A model generated the notes under the pieces. It was not told the DNA's origin. It was given only the letters and a program-made list of their open reading frames with translations, and searched no databases. Of a DNA stretch of 43,810 bases, positions 8,668 to 39,454 are shown in pieces. Where the stretch lies: the IMG/VR virus record IMGVR_UViG_3300028797_000113. One strand, given 5' to 3'. Each line of letters opens with the position of its first letter. Within the stretch, counting starts at the first letter, position 1. The DNA comes from a virus. Taxonomy: Duplodnaviria > Heunggongvirae > Uroviricota > Caudoviricetes. Position numbers and translations under genes: made by a program.

Positions 8668-8669
8668 AT

Positions 8670-9449
8670 TTATACCCCACTCCAAAAGTCCTCAGGAACA
8701 TTGATTAACTTATTCTCATATAAGTCTGCTTCCGAATCAACATCTCCGATTTCAAGCCATCCAAATTCAATCTGTCTTGCTCCGTCAATTTCTGCTTGAC
8801 TAAACAAACTTGAATCTGTTATGCCATCCGTCTTAATTCCTACCATCCACATTTCACCAGAAACACTCTTGATAATCTTTGCATTTCCTTCAGTAAGGAA
8901 ATCTTTGAAACTTCTTCTGTATTTCCAGTTGTGTTCGGTTTCAAACGTGATGTTGTTTTCAGGCCCGGTCATCTCTAAGAATGTACCAGTGCAAGTTCCT
9001 TCGTCATAATTGATAGCAGTTACATTGTAGTAACTGGGCTTTCTGGAATAGATTGGCTGATTAACGGCGTATGGTTTTATCGTGTTAAAGTTTATTGGAG
9101 AAATATTTAACGGAGAGTACCAAATAGCATTCGCATCGCAGACCACCAGAACATCGAATTGTGATGCAACATTCACGGTTTCTTCTGCGATCATATTGCC
9201 GTCGGCGTTTAAATAAACCACCTTGTATTGATACGTGTAATTATTTCTACAATATCTGTCTTCATAAGTAAATTGTAATTGAGTAGTGTTACCAATGCTT
9301 TTTGTGTACACAGAGGTAAACGCAAATTCACTTGATATTTTTCTCTTTAAAACAAGTCTTTTGACATCGGTGTATGAATCATCTCCGTTGGATGTAATAG
9401 TGATATATCCATAGTGCGGATGGTTCACAGCATTTAAAGTAATTGCCAT
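8670..9449 (-). CDS. Distal tail / baseplate protein (beta-sandwich N-terminus)
   Basis: Position after the TMP; beta-rich Fn3-like N-half (LKRK...YEDRYCRNNYTYQYKV); RBS AAAGGAGG. Confidence 0.5.
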   Translation of the reverse strand: MAITLNAVNHPHYGYITITSNGDDSYTDVKRLVLKRKISSEFAFTSVYTKSIGNTTQLQFTYEDRYCRNNYTYQYKVVYLNADGNMIAEETVNVASQFDVLVVCDANAIWYSPLNISPINFNTIKPYAVNQPIYSRKPSYYNVTAINYDEGTCTGTFLEMTGPENNITFETEHNWKYRRSFKDFLTEGNAKIIKSVSGEMWMVGIKTDGITDSSLFSQAEIDGARQIEFGWLEIGDVDSEADLYENKLINVPEDFWSGV

Positions 9450-9463
9450 TCGTTTCCTCCTTT

Positions 9464-9832
9464 CTAATAGATACCAAACATGGCGTCTATTTCAGCATTA
9501 GTTATAATATCTTGTGGTGTAATTGACGAACCCGGTCCGTAACTACCACTACCATCGTTCTTTGTTATTTTTGAGTCACCAGTTCTACTACCGATGATAA
9601 ACTTTTTATTGAAGTCGCCATTAGGACAATGAATCCAGACTTGATCGCCACGTTTAAAGGCAACGCCACTGGCATTCGGTATCTTATAACTTGTCTTCTC
9701 GATAGTAACGTGATACACTCCTTCTTCGTCGGCATATTCGATAACACCGCCGATGTCCATATCCATTAAATGTTTGGTTCGTTGTTCTATGGCATAGTCT
9801 ATGGTTTTTAATATATTATCTGTTACCGACAT
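9464..9832 (-). CDS. Small baseplate protein, possible OB-fold
   Basis: First gene after the TMP; GVYHVTI...FKRGDQVWIHCPNGDFNKKFIIG pattern. Start moved to MSVTD (9832) using the RBS GGAAAGGA. Confidence 0.45.
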   Translation of the reverse strand: MSVTDNILKTIDYAIEQRTKHLMDMDIGGVIEYADEEGVYHVTIEKTSYKIPNASGVAFKRGDQVWIHCPNGDFNKKFIIGSRTGDSKITKNDGSGSYGPGSSITPQDIITNAEIDAMFGIY

Positions 9833-9854
9833 AATTATCCTTTCCAAAAGAATA

Positions 9855-9876
9855 GGGGAGGACGTTAATCCTCCCC
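9855..9876 (-). terminator. Hairpin after the TMP gene (GGGGAGGA-TTAACG-TCCTCCCC, then TATTCTTTT)
   Basis: Perfect 8-bp stem 6 nt after the stop codon; the U-tract is imperfect. Confidence 0.6.
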
Positions 9877-9882
9877 ACGTCT

Positions 9883-12800
9883 TTAATTAAAATATTGTGT
9901 TGCTCTTCTTGAGAGCTGTTCAAACTCACGGAATAGGTCGTTTGCTTTGCTTGCATCAGTGATGTTCGGCAAGGTAACATTAAACGTCTGGTTAATCGTT
10001 TGACCACCAGCGGGTGCTACCGCAATTTGACCACTCTTAATTCCGCTTGCTATTCCAACCGCCTGAGCCGCTATCGCATTCTGTAACGGAGAACTTGTTC
10101 CGCTCGCAAACGCGTGTAACATAGCAAACTTCTTCGGGTTAAATTGTTTCATGGGAACATACTTCGATTTAAGAATCTTTTCGGTTTCGTCCCCATTGAA
10201 TACTTTTTCGCCACCTTCCATCTTCATCAAGGTGGGCTTATCTACGATTGAAGCAGTGCCGTCATTGTGAAGTACAATTTCAGGTTTCAATTCACCAACG
10301 AGAGCATCGCCTGACGGTGCAGAATCTGTGCCCGAATACAAAGCCTTAATAAGTTTCTTACTTGCTTCATGTTCTGCATTTTCTCGTGCTTTTTCTGCAT
10401 TTTTCTGTTTCGCAGTTGCATCAGGTATCGAGGCTTTCATGGCTTGATCGTATGCTTTCTGTCCTTCTGCCTCAATATACTTATTACGCGCATCATTTGC
10501 CAGACCTATGGTGGGATATTTTGTGCCGTTAAATTCATACTTATTTTCGGGTTGTTTTGTTTCGGCCCTTTTTTCAGCTAACTTCCCGGGCGTTATGTTA
10601 GAGTTGCCGACATTTCCATTAGAATGTCCTGTCGGTGTGTTTCCACCTCCATTTCCGTCAGTGCCACCTGTACCACCTGTACCGCCTGTGCCTCCCGTAC
10701 CACCACTGGTGTTGACTGTACCACCGCCACTTGGATTGACGGGATTATTGGCTTCGGCCGTTCTTGCATCAAGATAAGCCTGCTTCTGTAATTGTTGCGC
10801 GGTTACGTACTGCTCCGTGAAACTTTCGAGTAGACTCAATCCGTTCATAATATTGGTTTCCCAATCAGGACCCAATATTTCAGTCGCTCTCAAATTATTC
10901 TGCGCTTCTTCGAGTTTGGATGATACCTTTCCCCACGCTTCAGAATACTCGTTGAGTTTCTTGATTTGATCGTCTATCGACTTAGTTTCAGACTCCATCG
11001 CATCTTGCAAAGATTTGATTTGTTTTTCATACTCTGCAACCTGCTTATTAGTACGCGCTTTTCTTAAATTATCTTCAGCGTCCGATATTCCCTGCAAGTC
11101 TGCCGCGTAATAGAAACCTCTCGACTCTGAATACATCAGTTTCGTTCTTTGATTTTGAGCGCGTGCCAATTCGTATTGTGCTTTGCTCAATTCTAAGTTT
11201 CTATCTATTTCGTCATTCTCATCCTGAAGGGCATCTATCTTCTTCTGAATTACTTCAATCTGTTCATTGTACGAGTTTTCGATTGTCTCTTTCTGTTTCT
11301 CTAACGCATCTGTTTCGTCTTGGAATCTCTTTTGTACGGCGCTAATTACCTTATCGTATTGCTGAACCTGTTTCTCATAAAGACTCGCAAGTTCATCATA
11401 ATAATCCTGCGCCTTAATCTTACCATCTCTGTAATACTGTTCGATGATTGCTCTTGACTTATCTACATGCGTCTGGAATGAAATAACGCCCGCATCAAGT
11501 TCGGCATCATACATCGCAAGAATTTTATCAAGGGCTTCCTTAAACGCTTCTCCTGCTTCCGAACCAGCATCTTTTGCAGAGTCAATCGCTCCGCCGTAGT
11601 CAAGGTTCAAGTCCATAGTGTAATCCAAATCAAATTGGTCATTGATTTGTTTGATGACTTCATCACTAATTACACCTACTTGTCCTAAAGCATCATTAGC
11701 CAGTTCTTGTGCCGCCGTAATTGAATTCCACTCTGCAACTGCGGCAGGATTTTTACCCCATATACGACTGTCATTCCCATATCTTGCCACGAATGAACTC
11801 ATCTGGGCATCGGCTACTTTCTTTTTCTCCTCAAAGTTCTGTTGGTTCTCCATCAGATACTTCAATTTACTAACTTGAGCACCGCCGATACCAGCCAACT
11901 TAATCAACTCCATCAAGTATTCGATATCATCTTCGTTTCTCAATGAAGCATCTTTTGCTAATTCTTTCTTCAGGGCAAATGCCGCAACGGCTTGTGCTGA
12001 TTTACCAGACAGGTCTGCCTCTTGCATAAGGAGTACAATTTCTTCTGCGGTAAGTTTATCCAGATTTTCAGTAGAAACAACTAAATCATCTCTACCTTTC
12101 TTCTCTTGAACTTCGGCATTCATTAACTGAAGAGTCGAACGGATTTCTCCTTCGATAGCCTCTTTGTTCTTTAATGCCGCTTCAACACTTTCCTCTGCGC
12201 TTTCTTTGGTAATACCAGATGCAATAAGTTGTTGTTTTACCCACTCCTTATTTTCTTGTGTCAATTCGGATAACGCACTCTGTTGTATTGCATATTCAGT
12301 AACAATATCATCAAAGTAATGTTGTAAATCCTTTTCTCCACTCATTACGGCTTGTTCAAATTCTTTGTAAGAATCTAAATCACCAAATGCATCTTGTATG
12401 CTCGATAAGGTAGAAGCATCAATAAACTCACCATTTTGGAATTTTTCATAAGCGTCTGCGAGATTGTCAACTCCGTTCTTATACGAATTTAGAACATCAA
12501 CTGCATTCTGTTGAGACATCGAATTGATGGTATCAATCATGCCAGATAATGCCTCATCCGCTTCTTCCGCAGATAATCCCAATTCCTCGATCATCTTGTT
12601 ATAAAAATCGTATTCCTTGAGAGTTGTTTCATCGAGTTTGCCTGCTTGTGCCAAACCAACAAGTTCATCTTTGACTTCTTGCCACGTGGTTGAGTAACCA
12701 GCCATGCCGTTAGAAGAAAGCAATTCTCCCAATCCTCTCACCTTGGCGTTCTGCTGAGCCGTGGCAAATGCTTTGTCGATGGCCTCTATGGCTTCGGTAG

Positions 12801-15800
12801 GATTCATAGAAGAATCAATAGCATCCAGAACTAACTGCATATTGTTGGCAGAATAGTCCTTAATCTTATCTTCCAACTCTTGTTTCTTTGTGTCTATCGT
12901 GCCGTTGTCAAGTATCTTTCGGATTTCCTGATTAAACTCATCATCTAATTTGGCATAATCTTCCAAGCCAGACGCTTTCTTTACTGCCTGCAAGAACTCT
13001 TGAGCGTGTTGTCTTTCTTCGTCGGTCGCGTCTTCGCCCAATTGATCCCACACTTGTCCAACGAGTGTGTTATATGCGTCTCCTAATTCTCTATACGTTT
13101 CACGATAATTTGTGTCTTTCGACTTATCTCCATACAACTTAGATAATAAATCTTCGTCCACGCCTTCAGTCCATTTAATAACTTCGTTAGTAAAAGCATT
13201 CATCATAACTTCGTCTGAAGCCATCTCTTGCTTAAATTCATCACTAACGTGACCTATAACAGACTGAGCAATCGTATGTTGATTATCCGACAACTCTATG
13301 TCGCCAATTTCAATATTGAAATCTAAAGTTGCCACAACCGACTGCGTATAATTATTCAGATATTCTTGAAGTTTTCTTCTGTTGTTATCCTGAATCATTA
13401 TCGCTTCTTTTTGAAGTTGAGCATAAGCACTTTCAGAAATTTCGGTCTTATATCCTTCTGACATATCAACAGTCGTGTATTGTGATATGCCTTGGAATTG
13501 TTTATTGCCTTTGAGCAATTCCGTGTTGCCACGCATCATATACGCCAATACATCGGAAAAACTCTTTGCCAATAAGAAGTCTACCAAATATCCTCTAAGC
13601 GGATAATCTCGCATCTGCATTGTGAAATCATCATACGAAGTGTTGAGTATTTGATCCCAAATGGTGTTCGTTCCAGCCTTTATATTGTCATATCCCAGTA
13701 CCTCGGGAGATGAATATGCTTGACGAAGACCGCCCTTTTGGACTACCATCTTTACCGCACTTATGGCTCTCTGATGCCACTTGGGGTTAAGATAATTGTT
13801 TAAGACATCCGCGTTGGCTTGTACGTTCTTAGGGTCTGCTGCTTCTTCAAGTCTTGCTCTTCGATATTCTCGATAGGCTGCTGTCAAACCTTCGACACTA
13901 TCTTTAACATCAATGATGGCATTGCCTTCGTTTGTCCATCCAGTCACCATCTCGGGCATTCTGTCGGCAATCTCGTTAGAAATTTCGTTGTAACGAGCAA
14001 ATTCATCCGCGCTTAGAGAAACATTGTTCCCTAAATCATCAACCTCTTTGCTTAAACGGACATACTCATCAGCGACATCTTTGATGTATTTATCATTGTC
14101 TTTTAATTCGTCAGTAATTTCCTTAATTTTGCTGGATGCTTCTATAGCCTTTTGCTCTAATTCGCTGGTGTATTTCATCAACTTTCTGATTCCGGCTACC
14201 GCTATAGAAATAGCAGCTATAACTGCAATAGTAGATATTGAAGCCATTACGGCATTAAACGCCTTGACTTGTCCTTCTGCTCTTTGTACTTGCGCACTAG
14301 CATTTTCTACGGCTATTCCGTATTCTTTCTCCGAAGTTATTCCTTTCGTCAAAAGCACCTTGGAAGACTGGTTAATTGCACCATCAAGGTCGCCGTGTTT
14401 CTCAATAAATTCGTCAATAGCCTTTGTGGGAATCGCGCCTTCGTATTGACTTAGCACTTTCTCTTGGAAGGTAGCATTGGCATATATCCTGCTCATATCT
14501 GCCGAAAGGGCTTCATTGAAATCAATACCCATCCATGGATTTCCAGCACCCACCCCAGCGAACTTAGCCAGTCCTCTGAACAATCCTTTTCCAGCCAGAC
14601 CGCCCGTCTGAGCGTCTCCAGTGTACGTAATAAATTTCACGGTTTCTTTGTTGAAGTTCGCTACACCGAGGGCAGCAGAACCAAGTAAGGCTATTACCTT
14701 CGGCAAAGCATCTCCAAGGCCGTTGAATATTGACAGCAACGCTGTACCCAAATCAATCGTATCTTTAATCAACTCTGAGTCTAATGCGTTCTGCTCAAGT
14801 TCTTGCAACTCATTCTTGAACTGTTGAGTCTTACCCACAATACTGTCAAGATATTTTGCGTTTTCTTCAGCCGCACTGCCAGCAGAATCAATTGCCGAGT
14901 TGTAAACATTTTCCAACAATTCGGGGTTCATTAAAATGGACGCTGCAATGTTGGAACGTACTTTACCAGCAAGTTCTTCAACCAAACCTTTAGCACGGTT
15001 CGTACCGTACTTTTTATCTTCTTCCTGAATCTCTTTGTATATCTTCGAAATTTCAAGTAAAATCGTGTATGTGTTCTTTAAGTTTCCGTTCGAATCAAGA
15101 ATGTCTACGCCTTGGCCATTGTTGGATGCAACTTTCGTATAATCCATAATGACTTTACGTTTCTTGGCTTCAGTGGAAACCACCCAATCATCCACTTCTT
15201 CTCCGAGTTCTTCGAGTTCTTGACGAATATCGTCATCTCCTTCTTTAACGCCAGCGATACGAAGTGAAATTGTTCTAATACCAGTACCTACTTTATTTGC
15301 GTCTTGGATAATTGCATTACCCGCGGTTACAAGAGCCGCAGCTTCATACAAATCGTTGCCTTGCGTTACCAGTGCCGCAGACGAAGCCTGTAAAGCGGTT
15401 GCTAACTGATCAGTAGCAATCGAATAGTTATTACCGATGTTGTTCAAAACGTCGATAATTTCTGTCTTATCAAGGTCTTTGTATGCCTGAGACATGGAAA
15501 CGAGCGCTTCCGTCGCCTGATTAATATTTTCAAATTCGGAAACATTAAATAGCGTGGTTGCAGCCTTAGCCGATTTCGACGCCTCATCCAGACTTTCGCC
15601 CAATCTCAACCAGTCAGCAGTAGACTGTTGCAACTGGACTGCCGTAGTACCCAACGCACCAGCGGTATCAAATGTTGTCTTCTGATATTCTTTTAACGTC
15701 TTAAGGGACTCATCAGACACTTTTCTCATTTCTGTGAGAGCAGTATCGAGTTCGGTAATTGTAGAAATCATCGAACGCATATAGCGAATAATATCCATGA

Positions 15801-18800
15801 AACTGAAGTAAGTCGCTATAAATTTCGCGTTCATGTCTTTCAATCTTTGGCCAACTTGACCTAAGAAAGTTTTACCAGCCCTTGCGGCTTCCATTTCTAC
15901 CTTGCGGAATGCCTCGGTAAGCCTATCTATAGACTCCTTAGATACATCCGTTTGACCTTCGAGGTTCCTCATCTGAGCAACTACGTCTTTCAGTTGATTC
16001 TGAAGGTCACCGGGCATATAGTTGGTCGCCAACATCTTTTCCGCTTTTGTGATATTTCTTTGCAGAACTGATTTATCACCAGTCAAAATCGCACCGCTCG
16101 GATTTCTCGATTCACTTCTAACTGCATTAATATATGTCAGTTCATCGTTAGTAAGATATTCTCCGTTTGCTTGGCGATTTTGAATCATCGCCTTAGCACG
16201 CGCAACTTTTTCTAAGTATTCGGGCATATAGACATTTCTATCCTTGCCTCTAACTTTACTGGACTCAATCGTCTCAAGGTCTTTTGCCAGCGCATTCATC
16301 TCACGTTGAGCCGCTATAGATGTCTGTATCTCAGCATTAATTTGTTTAAATTCTGCTTCAATAGAATCAAATGTAACAGCGTCTACCTTTCCTTGAGCTT
16401 GAATCTCTTGAAGATTCTCAAGGAACGCTTCGGCAGAAGCACGCGAACTTGCAAGTAAATCAGTATTTTCAAGCACGTTTGCCGTGGATGTTGCCATACT
16501 GTTAATGCGTTTAAATCTGTCTTCATCCGCTTTCTGAGAAGCCTTACGTTCCGCTACGTCTCGTTTATTGAGAGCGTCTTCCCACCAAGCAATATAAGAT
16601 TCTTCGGCTTTCTTCCTATCTTCGATTTCTTTCTGCTTTGCTTTAGCGGATGCTTGTCTTTCAGATACATCTCTGTCGTTTAAAGACTTCTCCCACCACG
16701 AAACATATGAATCTCTCTCTTGTTGTTTCTTTTGCGCTTCCAGTTTTTGTTGTCTTGCTAACGAATTGCGCTCAGCAGCCTCTCTTTCGTTTAAAGACTT
16801 CTCCCACCATGCTACATAAGATTCTCTTTCCTGTTGCTCTTTAGCGTCTCTCTCGTCAAGAGCCTTGGTCCACCAATTAGTATAGTCTTCGTTGGCTTTG
16901 ATGATCGCTTGAGCCTGAGCCTCTCCTTCTGCTTTTAATGCATCGTGAGTTGCCTGATAATTTTCTTCAGCAACACGACGTTTATCGCCTTCCACATAGT
17001 AGTCAATATCTTCTTGTGCGCGTTTCTCTGCTTCTATGGCTTCATATTGTTGCTTTGCTAACTCTTCTTGCGCTTCAATATTTTCCTTGTAACGCCGTTT
17101 GCCTTCTTCCCATTGCTGATTTGCAACGGCTTCTTGCTGTTCGACGCTTTTCTTATATGCATTCGCGCTGGCTTGATATTGCTTTTCGGCTAAAGATTCT
17201 TTTGCCTGCACAGTGTCTTTATATGCTGACAAATCTGCTTCATATTGTTTTTTAGCCGCTTTCTCTTGTGCCTCAATGTCTTTCTTATAGTCTTTATATC
17301 CTTGTGTATCTGCTATCTTTATTACGCCTTTTTGCAATGCCTTTTGTTCAAGTTTCTGATATCCTTCATCATTCAGTCCTTTGCTCTTGGCAAAGTTCTT
17401 CAGAGTTTTATATTTTGAATTTTTGAACTCACTCAGCAAAGCGGCGTATTTATCTCTGGGTTCTTTGTTGTTTCCAGTTGCAACCTGATAACCTTCTTGT
17501 GCAGTCTTGCCACCAACGTCTCCTCCGCCTTGAACGGTCTCTCCCTTTACAACGGCGTTAGCAATAATGCCAACATTTCTGTTGATGTTGCCAAGAAGTT
17601 GTTCAACTGTTCCTGTACTCTTCCCGGATTTAAGACCAAACAACTTGTCAATGTCGCTTAAAGGTACGTTTCTTATATCGTCGAAATCTAAGGTCTTCAT
17701 CCAACTCTTAAACTTGGGAGCCTTTTTACCTTCGGCCGTATATACATCGCTTATTTCTTTCCAAGCCTGTTCCAGATTTCTTTGTAATCCGATTTGTGTT
17801 CTATCAAGCCTGTTTAAATCAGGAAATTCTTTTTGCAATGCTGCTTCATCAACTTCCATCTGAGCATAATACGTCATCACATCTTTGAAAAACTGTTTGT
17901 TTCTCTTGGCGATGTTCATATTAAGGACGGAAATTTGATTTTGAGATGCAATAAACTGCTTGCTGACACCTTCGTCCATCATTCCATAAAAGGTTTGCAT
18001 GTCACCATGAGAAGGTACCGCATAACGAGACGGATGCCAGTGTCCTGCAACATTATAATCGTTGCCCTTAAAATAATCTGTTAAACTATTTAATAATTCA
18101 GCAGAAATACTGCCCGCTAATCCAGTGACACCACTAGGCGTTGCCTGTCCTGTTTTGGAGTTTGCAAACATGGTTCTTTCTCTGTCGTAAGACGCTTGAG
18201 AACCCATTTCCTTTGCAATACGTAACAGAGCATTCTTTTCCACAGCGGTTATAGGATTGTCGGTTTCAGAATCTTTTTCAATCTTAGTGTTGCCTGCAAT
18301 AATGCCAGACTTTATCATGTCCGCAATATTTTTAGACATCTCGCTTCCGCTGGTTAAAGGATTAGACGTGTTGGCAATTTGCTTAACATCTCTCGCAATA
18401 TCAGCAACATCGTTCTTGATAATGTTAATAGGCTCTTCGGGAGTATGTTGGTCTGCCTTTTCTTGAGTCACTTTCCTACGCTTGTTAACATACTCTTGGA
18501 ATTTTTCCTTAGTCGTTTTTTCTTGAGGTTGAGGTTCCTCCACCTTACCCGACAACTGATCGTTGCACTTCTTTACGGCGTTTGCCATTTCATCTAAAGC
18601 AACTGTTGCAATAGAGATGTTTTCGGTGAATTTATCTAACGGAACTTCTGTTGTCGCGGTTTGTTTATCAGTATTCGCAGACAATCTTCCAAGTAAATCA
18701 TACTGCGTAACCATCAAGTTGATAAACTTGCCTAATTCATCTAAGGCTCTAAATGCTTTTTGTAATCCGGTTTGAGGCAAAACCGGTTGCATTTCTCCGT

Positions 18801-20754
18801 TTTGATTTAACACGTGAGTAGGACCAAGAAGTTCATTGGCCAACAATCTCATCTCTGCGATCATTCGTTCTTCGACATCAATTAACTTTAAGGTGTCTTG
18901 CTTAACATCTATTTTTAATTTGTCGATGGTTGCCTGATTCATGTCGATGCGGCCAATGGAAATATGCAAATCTTCCAGCTTGTCTAACGCCCCTTGAACT
19001 ATGTCGTGCAAACTTTCCACGTTCACTTCGGTGTTACCAACATTGAGATTAAACTGCATCTCTTCCATAATTTTTGGAATCTTATTCAGTTCCTGAATAA
19101 ACGCAGCAATATGTTGAGATAAAATATCTCCGGGAACTTCCACTACCTTTGCGGCTTCTCTTTTTGCCTTTTGAATTTCATCGAATTTCGCGCCGACATC
19201 TCCCAGACCAGTAGTAAATTTCTTAAGTTTAGCAGGGTCTTCGCTGGCAGTTAACTGATTAATTGCCTCTACCATCTTCTCTACAGACTTGATAGACGTC
19301 TTCGTAGTGCCGCCAATGGCCTCCATAATGTCATTAAAATACTCATACTGCTTAAAAGTATCTGCCGTCAAATTGCCGTTTCTGGACATTTCAAGAAGGT
19401 CACTTCTAACCTTCGCCCAAGACGGCGCAACTTCCGACATTTTCTTTTTAATGTCGTCGACTTCTTTCTCAACGTGCGCTTTATCTATCGCGTCTTTCTT
19501 AATGGCAATATTTCCGATAGGAAGCGTCAAGGTTCCCATCGCGTTAAGTTCCTTTTGTACTTGCTCAGGACTAATCTTAACATTGACATTAACGGGCTGA
19601 GCCTCTAATTCTTTCTTGATATTAGCGATGGCGTCCTTACTGCCTTCTTGCAATTTCTCAATGTTAGACTTAACGGGAACTTCAATGGGCTTTCTTTTTT
19701 TCTTATTTAACTTGTCTACTATTTCCTCTATTTGAGCTGTTAATTTGGCTTCTTGCCCTTCGGCAACATCGAGGTCCATTTCGACAGTAGTCTTTTTGCC
19801 CTTGCGATAAAGAGTTGCCTTTATTCCATCGAGAACGCTAATAAATTGTTTAGTGTCTCCAGCGCTTGCCTGAAGGTTAGACAATTCTTCTTTGAGAGTG
19901 GCCTCCAACTGCTTAAAGATAGCGTTGTATTCGTACTCCCCAGTCTTTTTGTTCTTTTCGTATAAGGCATCACCTAAGTTTCGGAATTTTTCATCGGCAA
20001 TGTCGGTAATTCTTTCAGCAAAATTATCATCTTTATCTTCTGCCATATCCTTATAGCGAGTAAGAATTTCAAGCAACTCTCTATTAATTGCCAATTTGTC
20101 CGAACCGTCTTTTTCTTGTAGAGCATGGAGTTCGTCAATACGCATAGACATCTTGGACAACATAGACTCCATGTCTGCGTCAGACATTTTTCTCATATCT
20201 TCAGTTACAGACGTCTGTTTGCCAAGGAGGTTCTCCAACTGCTTGATTTTTGCCTTGTCTACTTTCTGCAACCCTTTCGGAGCAACGTCAACGGGAGCAG
20301 AAAGCGTCTGTCTATATGTATTGGCAAGGTCGATTAAAGAATTAAATCCTTCCTCAACTTTCCCGATTTGTTCAAGAATACCGTTAAAGGTCTTCTCGTC
20401 GTTCATTTTATTAACGGCGGTATCTATTCTTTCCATCGTAGCATCAATCTTGGCGTTTTCGGTTGCCAGACTATGTGTCAAGGTAGATACTGCCTTTTTA
20501 ACTTCTTCGATTTTCTTTTCCATCGAAGATATTTCGTCATTCTTAACTTTTTTGGGTTCTGCGCCAAACACTTTTTGCAAATCAGTTAAAGCCTCTTTCA
20601 GAGAGTTTGCCTGATCTGCCAGCGTAGCAAATTGTGTTTCAAGTCCTTCGGCCAGTTTTACTTGTTGGGCCTGTTCTTGTAATTTTTCAAGTTCCCGAAT
20701 AATATCCTTAATTCCAGAAGCCTTGAAATCTATACCAACTTGTCTGTTTCTCAT
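9883..20754 (-). CDS. Giant tape measure protein (3623 aa), TP901/SPbeta YomI-type core, with an embedded JAB/MPN+ domain
   Basis: Helical, coiled-coil rich. TMP core from about aa 1655 (ELDTALTEMRKVS...STADWLRLG...NNIGNNYSIATDQLATALQASSAAL...VGTGIRTISLRI), hydrophobic segments, and a C-terminal YSGTDSAPSGDALVGELKPEIV...GEKVFN motif. RBS CGGAGG. Confidence 0.92.
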   Translation of the reverse strand: MRNRQVGIDFKASGIKDIIRELEKLQEQAQQVKLAEGLETQFATLADQANSLKEALTDLQKVFGAEPKKVKNDEISSMEKKIEEVKKAVSTLTHSLATENAKIDATMERIDTAVNKMNDEKTFNGILEQIGKVEEGFNSLIDLANTYRQTLSAPVDVAPKGLQKVDKAKIKQLENLLGKQTSVTEDMRKMSDADMESMLSKMSMRIDELHALQEKDGSDKLAINRELLEILTRYKDMAEDKDDNFAERITDIADEKFRNLGDALYEKNKKTGEYEYNAIFKQLEATLKEELSNLQASAGDTKQFISVLDGIKATLYRKGKKTTVEMDLDVAEGQEAKLTAQIEEIVDKLNKKKRKPIEVPVKSNIEKLQEGSKDAIANIKKELEAQPVNVNVKISPEQVQKELNAMGTLTLPIGNIAIKKDAIDKAHVEKEVDDIKKKMSEVAPSWAKVRSDLLEMSRNGNLTADTFKQYEYFNDIMEAIGGTTKTSIKSVEKMVEAINQLTASEDPAKLKKFTTGLGDVGAKFDEIQKAKREAAKVVEVPGDILSQHIAAFIQELNKIPKIMEEMQFNLNVGNTEVNVESLHDIVQGALDKLEDLHISIGRIDMNQATIDKLKIDVKQDTLKLIDVEERMIAEMRLLANELLGPTHVLNQNGEMQPVLPQTGLQKAFRALDELGKFINLMVTQYDLLGRLSANTDKQTATTEVPLDKFTENISIATVALDEMANAVKKCNDQLSGKVEEPQPQEKTTKEKFQEYVNKRRKVTQEKADQHTPEEPINIIKNDVADIARDVKQIANTSNPLTSGSEMSKNIADMIKSGIIAGNTKIEKDSETDNPITAVEKNALLRIAKEMGSQASYDRERTMFANSKTGQATPSGVTGLAGSISAELLNSLTDYFKGNDYNVAGHWHPSRYAVPSHGDMQTFYGMMDEGVSKQFIASQNQISVLNMNIAKRNKQFFKDVMTYYAQMEVDEAALQKEFPDLNRLDRTQIGLQRNLEQAWKEISDVYTAEGKKAPKFKSWMKTLDFDDIRNVPLSDIDKLFGLKSGKSTGTVEQLLGNINRNVGIIANAVVKGETVQGGGDVGGKTAQEGYQVATGNNKEPRDKYAALLSEFKNSKYKTLKNFAKSKGLNDEGYQKLEQKALQKGVIKIADTQGYKDYKKDIEAQEKAAKKQYEADLSAYKDTVQAKESLAEKQYQASANAYKKSVEQQEAVANQQWEEGKRRYKENIEAQEELAKQQYEAIEAEKRAQEDIDYYVEGDKRRVAEENYQATHDALKAEGEAQAQAIIKANEDYTNWWTKALDERDAKEQQERESYVAWWEKSLNEREAAERNSLARQQKLEAQKKQQERDSYVSWWEKSLNDRDVSERQASAKAKQKEIEDRKKAEESYIAWWEDALNKRDVAERKASQKADEDRFKRINSMATSTANVLENTDLLASSRASAEAFLENLQEIQAQGKVDAVTFDSIEAEFKQINAEIQTSIAAQREMNALAKDLETIESSKVRGKDRNVYMPEYLEKVARAKAMIQNRQANGEYLTNDELTYINAVRSESRNPSGAILTGDKSVLQRNITKAEKMLATNYMPGDLQNQLKDVVAQMRNLEGQTDVSKESIDRLTEAFRKVEMEAARAGKTFLGQVGQRLKDMNAKFIATYFSFMDIIRYMRSMISTITELDTALTEMRKVSDESLKTLKEYQKTTFDTAGALGTTAVQLQQSTADWLRLGESLDEASKSAKAATTLFNVSEFENINQATEALVSMSQAYKDLDKTEIIDVLNNIGNNYSIATDQLATALQASSAALVTQGNDLYEAAALVTAGNAIIQDANKVGTGIRTISLRIAGVKEGDDDIRQELEELGEEVDDWVVSTEAKKRKVIMDYTKVASNNGQGVDILDSNGNLKNTYTILLEISKIYKEIQEEDKKYGTNRAKGLVEELAGKVRSNIAASILMNPELLENVYNSAIDSAGSAAEENAKYLDSIVGKTQQFKNELQELEQNALDSELIKDTIDLGTALLSIFNGLGDALPKVIALLGSAALGVANFNKETVKFITYTGDAQTGGLAGKGLFRGLAKFAGVGAGNPWMGIDFNEALSADMSRIYANATFQEKVLSQYEGAIPTKAIDEFIEKHGDLDGAINQSSKVLLTKGITSEKEYGIAVENASAQVQRAEGQVKAFNAVMASISTIAVIAAISIAVAGIRKLMKYTSELEQKAIEASSKIKEITDELKDNDKYIKDVADEYVRLSKEVDDLGNNVSLSADEFARYNEISNEIADRMPEMVTGWTNEGNAIIDVKDSVEGLTAAYREYRRARLEEAADPKNVQANADVLNNYLNPKWHQRAISAVKMVVQKGGLRQAYSSPEVLGYDNIKAGTNTIWDQILNTSYDDFTMQMRDYPLRGYLVDFLLAKSFSDVLAYMMRGNTELLKGNKQFQGISQYTTVDMSEGYKTEISESAYAQLQKEAIMIQDNNRRKLQEYLNNYTQSVVATLDFNIEIGDIELSDNQHTIAQSVIGHVSDEFKQEMASDEVMMNAFTNEVIKWTEGVDEDLLSKLYGDKSKDTNYRETYRELGDAYNTLVGQVWDQLGEDATDEERQHAQEFLQAVKKASGLEDYAKLDDEFNQEIRKILDNGTIDTKKQELEDKIKDYSANNMQLVLDAIDSSMNPTEAIEAIDKAFATAQQNAKVRGLGELLSSNGMAGYSTTWQEVKDELVGLAQAGKLDETTLKEYDFYNKMIEELGLSAEEADEALSGMIDTINSMSQQNAVDVLNSYKNGVDNLADAYEKFQNGEFIDASTLSSIQDAFGDLDSYKEFEQAVMSGEKDLQHYFDDIVTEYAIQQSALSELTQENKEWVKQQLIASGITKESAEESVEAALKNKEAIEGEIRSTLQLMNAEVQEKKGRDDLVVSTENLDKLTAEEIVLLMQEADLSGKSAQAVAAFALKKELAKDASLRNEDDIEYLMELIKLAGIGGAQVSKLKYLMENQQNFEEKKKVADAQMSSFVARYGNDSRIWGKNPAAVAEWNSITAAQELANDALGQVGVISDEVIKQINDQFDLDYTMDLNLDYGGAIDSAKDAGSEAGEAFKEALDKILAMYDAELDAGVISFQTHVDKSRAIIEQYYRDGKIKAQDYYDELASLYEKQVQQYDKVISAVQKRFQDETDALEKQKETIENSYNEQIEVIQKKIDALQDENDEIDRNLELSKAQYELARAQNQRTKLMYSESRGFYYAADLQGISDAEDNLRKARTNKQVAEYEKQIKSLQDAMESETKSIDDQIKKLNEYSEAWGKVSSKLEEAQNNLRATEILGPDWETNIMNGLSLLESFTEQYVTAQQLQKQAYLDARTAEANNPVNPSGGGTVNTSGGTGGTGGTGGTGGTDGNGGGNTPTGHSNGNVGNSNITPGKLAEKRAETKQPENKYEFNGTKYPTIGLANDARNKYIEAEGQKAYDQAMKASIPDATAKQKNAEKARENAEHEASKKLIKALYSGTDSAPSGDALVGELKPEIVLHNDGTASIVDKPTLMKMEGGEKVFNGDETEKILKSKYVPMKQFNPKKFAMLHAFASGTSSPLQNAIAAQAVGIASGIKSGQIAVAPAGGQTINQTFNVTLPNITDASKANDLFREFEQLSRRATQYFN
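10600..10745 (-). repeat. Gly/Thr/Asn low-complexity tract (GGT)n near the TMP C-terminus
   Basis: PSGGGTVNTSGGTGGTGGTGGTGGTDGNGGGNTPTGHSNG. Confidence 0.85.
16530..16890 (-). repeat. Four WW-containing repeats in the TMP (consensus ESYxxWWEKxLNxRD)
   Basis: Four copies in the translation; an exact 23-bp direct repeat at 16676-16698 and 16787-16809 (111 nt = 37 aa apart). Confidence 0.9.
17026..17289 (-). repeat. Four 22-aa helical repeats in the TMP (YKxxxExQExxAxxQYExxxxx)
   Basis: YKKDIEAQEKAAKKQYEADLSA / YKDTVQAKESLAEKQYQASANA / YKKSVEQQEAVANQQWEEGKRR / YKENIEAQEELAKQQYEAIEAE. Confidence 0.85.
17790..18250 (-). other. JAB/MPN+ (JAMM, RadC-like) metalloprotease domain inside the TMP
   Basis: HWHPSRYAVPSHGD (18001-18042) fits H-x-H-x7-S-x2-D exactly, with an upstream Glu (ERTMF, 18178-18180). 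Domain boundaries are approximate. Confidence 0.75.
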
Positions 20755-21295: not shown

Positions 21296-21409
21296 TTGCG
21301 TGGGCGAGGATTTACACCTCGCATGATTTAACAGCGCATCATTCTCACACTCATTACGGCGAGCCACCTACTGTGTTTTGTTAGCGTCTACTTATTCCGC
21401 CACCACGCC
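21296..21409 (-). ncRNA. tRNA-like RNA with a 45-nt insert replacing the anticodon loop
   Basis: Minus strand GGCGTGG TG GCGG-AATAAGTAG-ACGC TAACA [45 nt] TGTTA AATCAT GCGAGG-TGTAAAT-CCTCGC CCACGC AA. It has a Leu/Ser-type D arm, a 6-bp T stem with a 7-nt loop, a 6-bp acceptor stem and no CCA. Confidence 0.75.
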
Positions 21410-22519: not shown

Positions 22520-23617
22520 TTAATACATCGCAACACCAGTTTTAATATCGTTATCAATAATTTCCTGAGGAAGCGCTGCACGTATCTTCTTAAATTCTTC
22601 ATCCCCGCCATATTCCTCCGTTCTAACCTTGTTCATAAAGTCGAAGAAGGTGATTTCAGGAATGATGTCAATAAGGTCTTGCATTTTGCCAGTTCTCTGT
22701 ACGGTGTACATCTTCTGCAATACTTCATCTTCGATTTGTGACTCAATCTGTTTATAACACTCGTGATAGAACCTCTTCGCATTAAAGAAGTTCTGCTCAG
22801 CAAAGACGGGTTTTTTGGCCAAACACTCGATATAAGTAAAGTATTGACCGATCATAATCTCTGTTACAAATCGAATAAGAGCGCCATTGAACGGATTTTT
22901 CTTACGGCAGAACTTAACCGCGTTAATTGCCGCTACCGTTGCTCCCCACTGGCAAAGGTCAAAGTTGTACTGAGGTATTCCTTTGTCATCTATTCCCATA
23001 CGGGTAATTGAATGTTCAGAACCAGTCCTCCAGAAGTAAATAGGTGCTTCAATGACATTAATCTTTAAAGGACTTCCGTCTATTGACATACGTATCTTCC
23101 AGTTGAACTCGCCATCTTCCATAGCACGTAATTCAGAGAACTTAATATCCATCTGCTTAAGGAACTCTACTCTGTACATACGTCCAAATACCCAAGGATG
23201 AAACATATCGTTTCTGGGAACCGTCCTCACTCCCTTAGGATGATTGGTTATTTCCTGATAGAAGATGCCTTGAACTTCAACTACATCCGTTGCTATTCCA
23301 CCTTTTAAATATTCAAGAGAGAATGCAGTAAAGAAAACATCGTCCGCGTCTATCCAAGTAATCCACTCGGTCTTGCACGCGTCCGCACATCGCTGTCTTG
23401 CTAATCCCGGACCAGTATTCTTTTCACAATCCAAGATTGTAATATCAAGGTCGGGGAATCTCTCTTTAACGAAATCGTAGTTATCTGTCGGATTATCTTT
23501 CGCAATAATAACAGATACTTCGTCTTTAATTGTTTGTGTTTGAATTGATGCCAAGCAATCGCTAATGTGATTCTCAGCCTTATAAGCAGGTATTCCTACC
23601 GTTAACCATTTGCTCAT
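22520..23617 (-). CDS. Glycosyltransferase family 2 (GT-A fold)
   Basis: LTVGIPAYKAENHISDCLASI, NTGPGLARQ, WITWIDADD (DxD at 23339-23350), AMEDGEFN; RBS AAAGGAG. Confidence 0.92.
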   Translation of the reverse strand: MSKWLTVGIPAYKAENHISDCLASIQTQTIKDEVSVIIAKDNPTDNYDFVKERFPDLDITILDCEKNTGPGLARQRCADACKTEWITWIDADDVFFTAFSLEYLKGGIATDVVEVQGIFYQEITNHPKGVRTVPRNDMFHPWVFGRMYRVEFLKQMDIKFSELRAMEDGEFNWKIRMSIDGSPLKINVIEAPIYFWRTGSEHSITRMGIDDKGIPQYNFDLCQWGATVAAINAVKFCRKKNPFNGALIRFVTEIMIGQYFTYIECLAKKPVFAEQNFFNAKRFYHECYKQIESQIEDEVLQKMYTVQRTGKMQDLIDIIPEITFFDFMNKVRTEEYGGDEEFKKIRAALPQEIIDNDIKTGVAMY

Positions 23618-23638
23618 AAAAATGTCTCCTTTTTCTCA

Positions 23639-24070
23639 TCATATTTCCTCGATGTCAATTTCGGTTCGAGGGTTCTCTTTGTCATATCCAGCCTTATATG
23701 TTAACGACGTTAAATGATTTGAGTCATCATCAACCATAAACCCAGACTCTACAAAACCATCCAAAATAAATTTAGGCACTTGGTTGTCCAAATCGTGCCG
23801 ACGTCTTGTAGAAAAATATACCGTAAACGTAACTTCAAACTTTTCAAGAAGTTTATTCTGATACCCCATGTCATTTACCCACCAAACAACAAACTCTTTC
23901 CACTTCTGCTTAAGAGCATTCATCTGTGGTCTTTTCATAATAAACCAAATGTTTATTGATGGATGATAAGGATGTTCGATAGGAGGTTTACTTGCTCTGG
24001 GGTGTTGAGAAAAGTAATACGCGTTGTACCTATCAAGTACATCATTGTCTAATATTAACTTCATAGCCAT
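23639..24070 (-). CDS. rusA: RusA-family Holliday junction resolvase
   Basis: RRRHDLDNQVPKFILDGFVESGFMVDDD and C-terminal ENPRTEIDI match the RusA DxDN...K...D...DD pattern. Confidence 0.88.
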   Translation of the reverse strand: MAMKLILDNDVLDRYNAYYFSQHPRASKPPIEHPYHPSINIWFIMKRPQMNALKQKWKEFVVWWVNDMGYQNKLLEKFEVTFTVYFSTRRRHDLDNQVPKFILDGFVESGFMVDDDSNHLTSLTYKAGYDKENPRTEIDIEEI

Positions 24071-24085
24071 TACCTAAAGCAACTC

Positions 24086-24110
24086 AAAAGCCAGACATTG
24101 CATCTGGCTT
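24086..24110 (-). terminator. Probable intrinsic terminator after the endolysin
   Basis: AAGCCAGAT-GCAAT-GTCTGGCTT followed by further T residues on the minus strand. Confidence 0.6.
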
Positions 24111-24125
24111 AAGGCTGCATATTCA

Positions 24126-24962
24126 TTATTTTGTTAAAGCGCTCCATGTCTTCGGGCCTACTATTCCGTCTTTTTGGAGTTTGACACCGTTGGCGTCGAC
24201 ATTTTCACTCTGGAATTTTTCGACCGCAGCTTTGGTTTTCGGACCGAATTTACCGTCCACTTTCCCGCAATTATATCCCTTCTCGTTAAGGATAGACTGA
24301 AGAAGTTTTACATATTCACCAGTCGAACCTTTTTGCAATGTAGGATATTTCTTCTGAGGCGCAGGCTGTGCCGAATTAGGCGCCTTGTCTCCGTAACAAA
24401 TATCCATATCAACGACAGAAACAATACCATTGACTCTGCCTTTACTGGAATACTGCCACATAAACGGATCATATTTGCCTTTACTTGTTGCATAATAAGC
24501 CAGCCACAAAGGATATTCAGACACGTCGTTGAATTTATTCTTGAGATAATCGGGGTTGGCATAAATGCCTACGTTGTAACCGTAGCCACTCATAGTCTCA
24601 AGGAATTTCTTAACCCATGCCGTTCTCTGTGCTTTACTCAGACCGGGTTTATATTTATCAGAATCGTATTCCCAATCAGCCCAGACCTTTAAATTAATCT
24701 TGCTTCTGTAGGGTTCGATAGTTTCCTGACATTTCTTTGCGTTGAGAATAATGTCATTCTCGTTTTTCGCATATAAGAACCAGTAAACACCGATGCCAAG
24801 TCCCTGAGATATTGCGCCTTCGATATACGTTCTGAACATAGGATCGACATTTGTCTTTCCCCAGCCCGCTCTGATAATTACAAAAGTAACACCATCTGCC
24901 TTGACTTTTGCCCAGTCAATCTTGCCTTGGTAATTACTTACGTCAATGCCTTTAGATTCCAT
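24126..24962 (-). CDS. Endolysin: GH25 muramidase plus a C-terminal peptidoglycan-binding (PG_binding_1) domain
   Basis: GIDVSNYQGKIDW, VWADWEY, WQYSSKG (GH25); TLQKGSTGEYVKLLQ...DGKFGPKT...DGIVGPKTW (PGBD). Confidence 0.93.
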   Translation of the reverse strand: MESKGIDVSNYQGKIDWAKVKADGVTFVIIRAGWGKTNVDPMFRTYIEGAISQGLGIGVYWFLYAKNENDIILNAKKCQETIEPYRSKINLKVWADWEYDSDKYKPGLSKAQRTAWVKKFLETMSGYGYNVGIYANPDYLKNKFNDVSEYPLWLAYYATSKGKYDPFMWQYSSKGRVNGIVSVVDMDICYGDKAPNSAQPAPQKKYPTLQKGSTGEYVKLLQSILNEKGYNCGKVDGKFGPKTKAAVEKFQSENVDANGVKLQKDGIVGPKTWSALTK

Positions 24963-24963
24963 A

Positions 24964-25284
24964 TTATTCTCCTTTCTTAAAGAGTTGTTCTAAGGCCTGT
25001 TTTACCTTGTCATAGCCGTTGGTTGCACATAAGAAACCAAGGAATGCAAGAGCGATAGAACATACAAGATAAGAAGCACTAAATGGAATATTCTGGACAA
25101 TCGCATAACCAACGCTCAACGCAGCAGAAAGTACAATGGCAATAATGCTTGCGAGAGTGTTGTCAGGTAAACTCTTTTTATAATCTTTGAGGATTGCTTT
25201 AATCGCCTGTAATGTAAGAGAAGTAAAGAGCGATACTGCCAATAATCCCGTAAAGAAAACTCCACCGTATTGAATAATTTCCAT
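24964..25284 (-). CDS. Holin
   Basis: Three hydrophobic segments, charged C-terminus (YDKVKQALEQLFKKGE), immediately upstream of the endolysin. Confidence 0.8.
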   Translation of the reverse strand: MEIIQYGGVFFTGLLAVSLFTSLTLQAIKAILKDYKKSLPDNTLASIIAIVLSAALSVGYAIVQNIPFSASYLVCSIALAFLGFLCATNGYDKVKQALEQLFKKGE

Positions 25285-26020: not shown

Positions 26021-26818
26021 TTACGATTCAGCAACTTCAGGAATGATAATCTGATAGAGAATCTTCTGGTTATCGCAGTAAGACTGCTGACACTGAATTG
26101 TGAAAGGATGGTTACCGTCTGTCGTAAAGCTAAGGTCTACGTTAGCATCGAGTTTTGCGTTAGGGAATACAAGGTATGCGTGAATAAGAGTTGTGGGATC
26201 ACAAACGTCTGCACCAAGGATTTCCATAACGAACTTACCAGCCTTAGGGAAGTTAACAGCGTCACCTGTAACTGCTGTACCAGCCTCAAGGTCATAATCA
26301 TACATAACGAAGATTCTGTCGCCTGCCTGTAATGAGGTAGGAGGAGTAATCTTTACGTTAGTTGAATCATAGAAGAACTCGTCTTCGTCAGCAGCAGTTG
26401 AACTTCTGCCGTATGCAGTACCAAGAGTACCATCACCATTCATCTTGTAAACAGTTGAAGGTGCTGTCTTAGGTGTCCGAGATAATGAGTAAGCAGTTGT
26501 ACCACTTACAAGTGTAATCTCGTCGAACATAGGTGTTGAGATAGGAGCAGCCTGAGTTGCTTCCTGAACTTCTACACCGTTCTGTGCTGCGAACAAACCA
26601 AGGTCAAAGAGAGAGTTCTGTGCAGAGAACTCAGCAGATTTACCTCTGTTGAAAACAGCGATTCTTGAGCCAAGTGCATCAACTGCTTCTGCTGTTTCAG
26701 AAGTGATGTTTAATGAAGGCTCTGTAATCTGGTTGATGGACCACATATATGAACCATCAGCAGTAGAAAACATCATACCACGAAGAACGCGGTCAATAAC
26801 AAAGTTATTAATTTTCAT
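26021..26818 (-). CDS. Major tail (tube) protein
   Basis: Beta-rich; ITEPSLNITSETAEAVDALG...FNRGKSAEFSAQNSLFD and YLVFPNAKL...FTIQ are typical siphophage tube patterns. Strongly biased codons and a downstream hairpin. Confidence 0.82.
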   Translation of the reverse strand: MKINNFVIDRVLRGMMFSTADGSYMWSINQITEPSLNITSETAEAVDALGSRIAVFNRGKSAEFSAQNSLFDLGLFAAQNGVEVQEATQAAPISTPMFDEITLVSGTTAYSLSRTPKTAPSTVYKMNGDGTLGTAYGRSSTAADEDEFFYDSTNVKITPPTSLQAGDRIFVMYDYDLEAGTAVTGDAVNFPKAGKFVMEILGADVCDPTTLIHAYLVFPNAKLDANVDLSFTTDGNHPFTIQCQQSYCDNQKILYQIIIPEVAES

Positions 26819-39379: not shown

Positions 39380-39454
39380 GCGCGTAGACGGGATTTGAAC
39401 CCGCGACACATCCATTACTAATGGACCGCTCCTGCCGAACTGAGCTACTACGCT
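39380..39454 (-). tRNA. tRNA-Thr(AGT)-like gene with a non-canonical acceptor end
   Basis: AGCGTAG TA GCTC-AGTTCGGCAG-GAGC G GTCCA-TTAGTAA-TGGAT GTGTC GCGGG-TTCAAAT-CCCGT CTACGCG C. Full cloverleaf with anticodon AGT (39417-39419), A1:G72 mismatch, C73, no encoded CCA. Confidence 0.8.

Follow-up and report, generated by a model that had tools for sequence, protein, structure and literature searches.

A predicted JAB/MPN+ zinc-hydrolase-like domain in the N-terminal extension of a giant phage tape measure protein

What is a predicted zinc hydrolase doing inside the tape measure protein (TMP) of a phage tail? The question is raised by a stretch of 43,810 nucleotides (the window) that covers bases 51670-95479 of the 129,668-bp IMG/VR virus record IMGVR_UViG_3300028797_000113, which CheckV rates as complete. 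The window encodes a giant TMP, designated P0001, in which the first-pass annotation, made by eye from the sequence, had noticed an embedded JAB/JAMM metalloprotease domain. JAB enzymes are Zn-dependent peptidases acting at the C-terminal ends of ubiquitin-like (Ubl) proteins, and TMPs leave through the tail at infection. The conservation and modeling results described here indicate that residues ~836-989 of P0001 are a JAB/MPN+ zinc-hydrolase-like domain in which all five predicted catalytic residues are intact. The coordinates of this domain and of the other features of the window are collected in Table 1; relatives of P0001 and their loci are designated by P and L numbers.

P0001 is a tape measure protein. 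In a Pfam scan, PhageMin_Tail (PF10145) matches residues 1697-1915 (E 4.6e-14), and phrog_4211, "tail length tape measure protein," matches residues 1332-2838 (E 6.7e-63). The assignment is also based on the location of the gene in a tail module, on a hydrophobic segment, on Trp-Trp repeats that presumably agree with the ruler repeats of TMPs, and on the similarity of the core, which is most like the annotated TMPs of Brevibacillus phage Sundance, Thomasclavelia phages TR-TP1/2, and Tsamsa-like Bacillus phages. The protein is colinear with its nearest relative, P0002, which is encoded in a syntenic phage locus from a rumen metagenome. Homologues of YomU_Tube and YomW are present in the loci of two metagenomic relatives, and locus L001, which is syntenic with the window, holds a YomU_Tube homologue, indicating that these genes make up the tail module of an SPbeta-like siphophage. 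The Pfam scan showed a single enzymatic domain in P0001; the definition of a polyvalent protein, the term used in the first-pass annotation, asks for at least two disparate effector domains in a polypeptide delivered by the virion. Some relatives have two JAB copies, and P0014 has another module in the corresponding slot. Near the C terminus of P0001, at residues ~3343-3373 (10636-10728, minus strand), is a Gly-rich linker, GGGTVNTSGGTGGTGGTGGTGGTDGNGGGN, which precedes the last ~250 residues and may be a flexible joint ahead of a tip-proximal domain.

The catalytic motif lies exactly where the first-pass annotation had placed it. Residues E859, H905-W-H907, S915, and D918 are encoded at nucleotides 18180-18001 of the minus strand, and the interval that it had given, 17790-18250, corresponds to residues 835-989. 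The sequence RERTMFANSK begins at residue 858 and HWHPSRYAVPSHGD begins at residue 905. The pattern H.H.{7}S..D is expected by chance in ~0.07% of random 3623-residue sequences of matched composition; the requirement for an upstream Glu adds no stringency to this rate and is uninformative because Glu is abundant. A stronger argument against chance than the rarity of the motif is the conservation of these five residues among homologues. An exhaustive HMMER search with residues 820-1010 against 1.8 billion representative proteins identified seven relatives, each an internal segment of a giant protein of 976-3987 residues, and a profile search among proteins of 292-2000 residues added six, four of which have a precomputed PF10145 match. 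All of the relatives sit within giant TMP-like proteins from metagenomes. In 16 full copies of the domain, from 12 other giant proteins, the identity to the domain of the window is 18-34%, and E859, H905, H907, S915, and D918 are the sole invariant columns.

The structure was predicted with AlphaFold from the alignment of the 16 sequences, giving a mean predicted local distance difference test score (pLDDT) of 76 and a predicted template modeling score (pTM) of 0.68; a model made from the single sequence (pLDDT 39) was discarded. The predicted topology is α1-β1-β2-α2-β3-α3-β4-β5, with E859 on β1, the HxH sequence at the end of β3, and S915 and D918 at the beginning of α3. The helix and the two short strands (KQFIAS and ISVLN) that had been picked out by eye after the motif are reproduced in the model as a helix comprising residues 916-928 and strands at K932-A936 (KQFIA) and I941-N945 (ISVLN). 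A Foldseek search of the PDB ranked RadC (2qlc) first and Pyrococcus JAMM1 (PfJAMM1) next, both with a probability of 1.0, followed by BRCC36, AMSH, Rpn11, CSN5, and Cap3. VIA, a search independent of Foldseek in which the top Z-scores were little above the background quoted for the tool, gave Z-scores of 9.4 for RadC, 9.1 for PfJAMM1, 8.4 for Rpn11, 8.3 for CSN5, 8.1 for BRCC36, 7.6 for Cap3, 7.3 for AfJAMM, and 6.3 for a bacterial Ubl-deubiquitinase. The top 24 rows are all MPN/JAB proteins, and the deaminases, which share the parent fold, rank below them. For the fold assignment we have relied on the uniformly JAB composition of the match list and on the agreeing placement of the motif. The first-pass annotation had named a non-MPN fold and unconserved metal ligands as outcomes that would count against its proposal; Foldseek and VIA both return MPN proteins, and the ligands are among the residues that are invariant in the 16 copies. 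Its description of a JAB/JAMM domain embedded in a tape measure thus agrees with the predicted fold on one side and with the PhageMin_Tail and phrog_4211 matches on the other.

To which branch of the JAB clan does the domain belong? Among the first 10 copies that were scanned, five match the Pfam family Prok-JAB (PF14464) and no other family of the clan. The gathering threshold of 25 bits is passed by P0009:284-444 (25.2 bits), by P0004:1485-1638 (26.1 bits), and by the whole of P0004 (32.8 bits); three further copies match below the threshold. The PADLOC models for Cap3-type JAB proteins of CBASS give weak but consistent matches, with a best E-value of 1.5e-4 among the copies and of 0.015 for the domain of the window, and, in alignments with the family profile, the HxH...S..D blocks of Cap3 (9ild) and AfJAMM (1oi0) fall opposite that of the profile, with E-values that are non-significant. 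No scanned copy matches Pfam RadC (PF04002; E<=10 or E<=1) or the sequence models for Toxin-JAB1 and DUF4329, so that the label "RadC-like form," which the first-pass annotation had attached to the motif, does not hold at the level of sequence. A scan of the 16 copies with NCBIfam returned only noise, and the only match of the window's own domain in PHROGs was phrog_17999 (E 0.05). Neither a tblastn search with three different copies against 50,697 GenBank phages nor megablast of the DNA against phages gave a match. Pattern-based scans of IMG/VR and GTDB species genomes found no relatives, and a pattern scan of JGI metagenomes recovered only the contig of P0011. The first alignment had no stretch conserved enough to serve as a query. 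Word-index searches for stand-alone forms of 80-315 residues and among proteins of 1992-6341 residues found none, and these are weak negatives. As judged from these searches, the module appears to be rare, a divergent branch of the Prok-JAB family that is so far confined to the N-terminal extensions of giant TMPs in SPbeta-like siphophages from rumen and gut metagenomes.

The structural matches raise an alternative, that the domain is a RadC/Tox-JAB-like enzyme whose substrates during DNA entry would be nucleic acids or nucleotides (the ends of host or phage DNA, or a nucleotide signal) and not proteins. RadC is the top structural match in both searches, a shape match in the ESM Atlas is to a RadC-containing protein (TM-score 0.67), the language-model feature matches of the domain include Toxin-JAB1 and DUF4329, and the domain would enter the cell alongside the DNA. 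The absence of a tunnel for a Ubl tail has led to the proposal that RadC and the toxin JAB clades are nucleases (PMC5512222; PMC3482391). However, several copies match Prok-JAB and none matches RadC, Toxin-JAB1, or DUF4329; RadC ties as the nearest solved structure with PfJAMM1, a true Ubl-peptidase (Z 9.4 versus 9.1), and RadC has itself yet to be proven a nuclease. We regard this alternative as distinctly unlikely.

The distribution of the module among the relatives is informative about its role. In all nine relatives that have a PF10145 match, the JAB module is N-terminal to the PF10145 core, at a distance that varies from 850 to >1500 residues. Searches with a hidden Markov model built from the copies identified two full copies in each of P0003, P0004, P0006, and P0007. 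P0001 and P0002 share 51.5% identity across the C-terminal 2200 residues, but the value is 35% in the region of the JAB domain and 28% in the first 700 residues, indicating that the flanks diverge faster than the core of the TMP. The alignment of P0001 with the Sundance TMP starts at residue 1607 of the former and residue 677 of the latter, so that P0001 has ~930 extra N-terminal residues; an unfiltered search with the model found no JAB module in the TMP loci of Sundance and TR-TP1. Degenerate copies are present in P0009 (residues 797-857) and P0014 (residues 802-857). These keep the N-terminal third of the module, as far as ER..F.NSKTG..SNP, with the conserved Glu and NSKTGxFSNP retained, and the half that carries HxH, Ser, and Asp has been replaced, which suggests a distinct, non-catalytic function for the N-terminal portion. 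In P0014, which has no HxH at all, an unrelated segment of ~290 residues occupies the slot of the first JAB copy of its close relatives P0009 and P0007. Together, these comparisons suggest that the module is an accessory cassette within the N-terminal extension of TMPs, open to duplication and replacement, and that selection retains the catalytic residues wherever the whole domain is retained.

The same relatives provide two further observations. The replacement segment of P0014 (residues ~286-572; L007:6856-7716, plus strand) has kinase-like motifs by eye, namely a G-loop-like SGGLIG...TVLTTK, VDLNAGNLL, and IIDMD. Its identification as a kinase was not adopted: the feature matches in the ESM Atlas are weak (APH/RIO1/ABC1, 0.77-0.80) and the sole PDB match is an expression-tag artefact. 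In three loci the coding sequence of the TMP is interrupted inside the PF10145 core or shortly after it (L002:10001-25310, L007:6001-17997, and L004, TR-TP1, 8446-16275). Among the intervening genes are those for a DUF723 protein (L002) and for HNH endonucleases (TR-TP1), a second ORF (open reading frame) of ~2000 residues follows, and the splits probably reflect insertions of homing endonucleases or introns. Because of these splits, many matches end at ~1900-2000 residues.

The half-degenerate copies, and the frequency with which MPN- pseudo-enzymes such as Rpn8 and CSN6 serve as scaffolds, could suggest that the domain is a dead or purely structural MPN module, or that its motif arose by chance. 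This is hardly credible in view of the five intact catalytic residues, which are the sole columns to have survived in 16 divergent copies, and of the low chance rate of the motif.

The accessory, cassette-like behavior favors a cargo or effector role over a core role in assembly, and we infer that the module is swappable catalytic cargo and not part of the length ruler. In the reading that we favor, with a rough probability of 0.45, the JAB domain is TMP-borne cargo that acts early, at or in the host, and is most probably a metallo-(iso)peptidase. H905, H907, and D918 would bind Zn, and E859 and S915 would activate water and stabilize the intermediate. The domain would be packaged into virions within the TMP, would leave through the tail together with it at infection, and would act early on a host or phage protein, at or in the host cell. 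We also count in favor of the cargo reading the structural look-alikes from virion proteins. Those that cover the longest part of the model include C-terminal domains of MuF and minor capsid protein 2 of Bacillota phages (in the AlphaFold database "Phage minor capsid protein 2," TM-score 0.57, and "Mu protein F like," 0.54; in the ESM Atlas a Phage_Mu_F cluster, 0.64), and MuF occurs in polyvalent proteins, whose predicted route into the cell is injection alongside the DNA (PMC5512222). The TMP of phage P23-45, with its N-terminal RNA polymerase, is counted as a precedent.

Several points weigh against the cargo reading. At the level of the domain itself, the window's own sequence has no match in Pfam at E<=10, and a phmmer search of the PDB returned only noise (HflX, E 0.76), so that the motif by itself would be suggestive of a JAB site; membership in Prok-JAB is assigned through transitive homology and the 16-sequence model. 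The alignment behind the fold is shallow, at 16 sequences, and the Foldseek TM-scores are modest (0.45 and 0.56). At the level of the mechanism, we infer Zn binding, activity, the presence of the N-terminal 1300 residues in the virion, delivery, and the substrate. TMPs are trimeric, and three domains with an estimated size of ~3.3 nm each would be a tight fit in a tail lumen of ~4-4.5 nm, so that the module may be cleaved off or unfolded. A search of the 129.7-kb phage genome found no ThiF/E1 protein, no ThiS-like Ubl, and no second JAB domain, with the limit that a divergent β-grasp protein could escape it. No candidate for the substrate emerged. Finally, the comparison among relatives draws on few sequences, many of them from truncated or split genes.

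A different explanation is that the JAB domain is a morphogenetic protease that cuts the giant TMP, trimming or releasing its N-terminal extension, or cuts another tail protein during assembly. The only tail-linked JAB domain known to us is that of lambda gpK, which is said to have been proposed by Iyer, Burroughs, and Aravind in 2006 to trim the ubiquitin-like domain of gpI. TMPs are often matured by proteolysis, as in the conversion of lambda gpH to gpH*. A ruler of the full 3623 residues implies a tail of ~540 nm, making removal of the extension plausible, and an accessory distribution is also compatible with the self-processing of an accessory extension. Self-processing by embedded peptidases has been predicted for polyvalent virion proteins (PMC5512222). 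However, Sundance and TR-TP1 build tails with related TMPs that lack the module, P0014 is without an intact copy, some proteins have two copies that are intact and predicted to be active, and P0001 has no NlpC/P60 partner domain. Neither a convincing Ubl nor a conserved Gly-Gly site turned up in the flanks of the module (12 proteins) or in the neighboring small ORFs. Morphogenetic cleavage is rather unlikely in our estimation.

A cell-wall role has to be weighed for a different reason, the bond that is cut. Peptidoglycan cross-bridges are isopeptide bonds, the type that JAB enzymes cleave, and the domain could cut the peptide or isopeptide cross-links of the thick peptidoglycan of Gram-positive hosts, in place of the transglycosylase and M23 domains that are usual in SPbeta-type TMPs. 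No NlpC/P60, SLT, M23, or lysozyme domain was found by Pfam in P0001 or P0002. The annotation of the Sundance TMP is that of a lytic transglycosylase; a sequence search of the PDB with the whole of P0001 and with the Sundance TMP gave no match, and the transglycosylase annotated in the latter could therefore not be located. Peptidoglycan hydrolase motifs embedded in TMPs are well known (TM4, PMC1796659; enterococcal survey, PMC10194240). Against this, the JAB domain is in the head-proximal N-terminal quarter of P0001, the last to leave the tail, and other tail proteins encoded in the window may be lysins. The lysin domains of TMPs that are known to us sit tip-proximal, and we know of no JAB-fold enzyme that acts on peptidoglycan. 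This explanation is improbable.

A more specific form of the cargo reading is that the domain is a virion-delivered deconjugase that strips host Ubl tags, such as those placed on tail proteins by Bil or Bub systems or those involved in the priming of the CD-NTase by Cap2 in CBASS. The enzyme would act upon injection or on nascent tails. A phage counter-enzyme of the Cap3 or BilC type would not need an E1 or E2 of its own. We consider this version a long shot.

All of the large genes of the window are on the minus strand and together make up the structural module of a large phage (Table 1). The window also encodes three small ORFs without an assigned product and tail proteins downstream of the TMP gene. 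One of these, a 713-residue protein (6544-8685, minus strand), bears DUF5048 at its C-terminal end (E 8e-34), may serve in receptor binding or as a lysin, and has a counterpart in the same arrangement in L001. Between the tube and virion genes and the TMP gene is a group (22520-25284, minus strand) that comprises a possible holin, recognized by eye, an endolysin, a RusA resolvase, and a family-2 glycosyltransferase. The order endolysin-RusA-glycosyltransferase is kept in L001, where the endolysin consists of GH25 and PG_binding_1 domains (Pfam); the set is unusual cargo for a tail operon. The sole tRNA called by ARAGORN, a tRNA-Thr (AGT), is located amid the structural genes (39380-39454, minus strand); the program made no call at 21296-21409, immediately upstream of the TMP operon.

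Table 1. Features of the window, by nucleotide position and strand, with residue numbers of P0001 where they apply
Feature	Position	Strand	Basis
JAB/MPN+ domain, residues 836-989	17788..18249	-	homologue HMM match; AlphaFold model; Foldseek/VIA
E859 codon, predicted general base/acid of the JAMM site	18178..18180	-	invariant in 16 copies; start of strand β1 in the model
H905-W-H907 codons, predicted Zn ligands	18034..18042	-	invariant; profile aligns to Cap3 9ild HTH and AfJAMM 1oi0
S915-H-G-D918 codons, predicted oxyanion-site Ser and third Zn ligand Asp	18001..18012	-	invariant; N terminus of helix α3
TMP gene, 3623 residues (P0001), single uninterrupted ORF	9883..20754	-	Pfam, PHROG, tail-gene context
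Accessory N-terminal extension, residues 1-1331, charged, helical, holds the JAB module	16762..20754	-	outside the phrog_4211 match
Four tandem Trp-Trp repeat units, ~37-residue spacing, residues ~1283-1420	16495..16908	-	WW at residues 1294, 1316, 1353, 1390
Conserved TMP core (PF10145), residues 1697-1915	15010..15666	-	Pfam
Strongly hydrophobic, membrane-helix-like segment, residues 2163-2194	14173..14268	-	Kyte-Doolittle mean 2.35
Family-2 glycosyltransferase	22520-23617	-	
RusA	23639-24070	-	
Endolysin	24126-24962	-	
Hydrophobic 106-residue ORF, possible holin	24964-25284	-	by eye only
Virion protein	26021-26818	-	
Major-head-like protein	30903-31988	-	
Portal	34801-36318	-	
Terminase	36545-38296	-	

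A search of the full-text literature found no description that links tape measure proteins with JAB, JAMM, MPN, or Prok-JAB, and the survey of polyvalent proteins does not mention tape measures (the word "tape" occurs 0 times; PMC5512222). A Pfam scan would mark some metagenomic proteins, P0004 for example, with both PF10145 and PF14464, so that the architecture is latent in the databases, though undescribed. The finding combines two known themes, the enzyme-bearing TMP and the JAB domain associated with phage tails. To our knowledge, few enzymes carried by TMPs are known beyond short muralytic motifs and the P23-45 RNA polymerase, and TMPs are usually seen as rulers and channel formers. A conserved JAB domain that is duplicated, lost, and swapped in TMP extensions suggests that large siphophages of the gut and rumen exploit the TMP to deliver a changing set of enzymes. 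Were a host Ubl conjugate the substrate, the domain would represent a new class of counter-defense and the first borne by a structural protein against bacterial ubiquitin-like immunity; if it were the TMP itself, the maturation of giant TMP precursors would be explained. Either reading provides a defined domain of ~155 residues with five predicted key residues.

The closest relatives of known structure are the Prok-JAB members AfJAMM (1oi0/1r5x), PfJAMM1 (5ld9), and Cap3 (9ild), which share with the domain of P0001 the E...HxH...S..D site and a minimal MPN fold. These are stand-alone proteins of ~110-160 residues that work with Ubl proteins and are usually encoded in operons with E1 and E2, whereas the JAB domain of P0001 is inside a 3623-residue virion protein, has extra C-terminal helices, and is encoded in a genome with no detected Ubl or E1. 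RadC and the toxin JAB proteins, to which the best structural match belongs, are similar in that a JAB domain of a mobile-element or conflict system is part of a large multidomain protein, but the RadC-bearing polyvalent proteins are from conjugative elements and not from phages (PMC5512222). In MuF and minor capsid protein 2, a JAB fold is likewise appended to a virion protein; the likeness is by structure only, and the carrier is internal to the head and not to the tail.

Lambda gpK is similar in that a JAB domain is encoded in the tail module of a siphophage. It is a small, separate tip-assembly protein in which the JAB domain is joined to NlpC/P60 and which is paired with the Ubl-bearing gpI. 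In P0001, by contrast, the JAB domain is in the tape measure, far from the tip-proximal end; NlpC/P60 and a gpI-like Ubl gene were not found in P0001 or the neighboring ORFs (Pfam) or in the genome (ThiS search). A second group comprises TMPs with accessory hydrolases. SPbeta YomI/CwlP has SLT and M23 domains. The TMP of mycobacteriophage TM4 contains an Rpf-like peptidoglycan hydrolase motif (PMC1796659). Like the JAB module, these are accessory enzymatic modules of TMPs that are dispensable for assembly and variable between relatives. They differ in having muralytic folds, and we know of no muralytic member of the JAB fold.

The best precedent for enzymatic cargo fused to a TMP is gp96 of P23-45, a TMP of 5002 residues with an N-terminal virion RNA polymerase whose delivery is believed to take place through the tail (bioRxiv 10.1101/2022.12.01.518664). 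The authors of that study propose that the polymerase resides in folded form inside the tail channel, which measures 4.5 nm, and operates at the entry pore. The two proteins differ in that one carries a two-barrel RNA polymerase, of which the function has been shown, and the other a JAB hydrolase known from sequence and a model, and they belong to different phage lineages and hosts. In both, however, a giant TMP has at its N-terminal side a globular enzyme that is unrelated to measuring.

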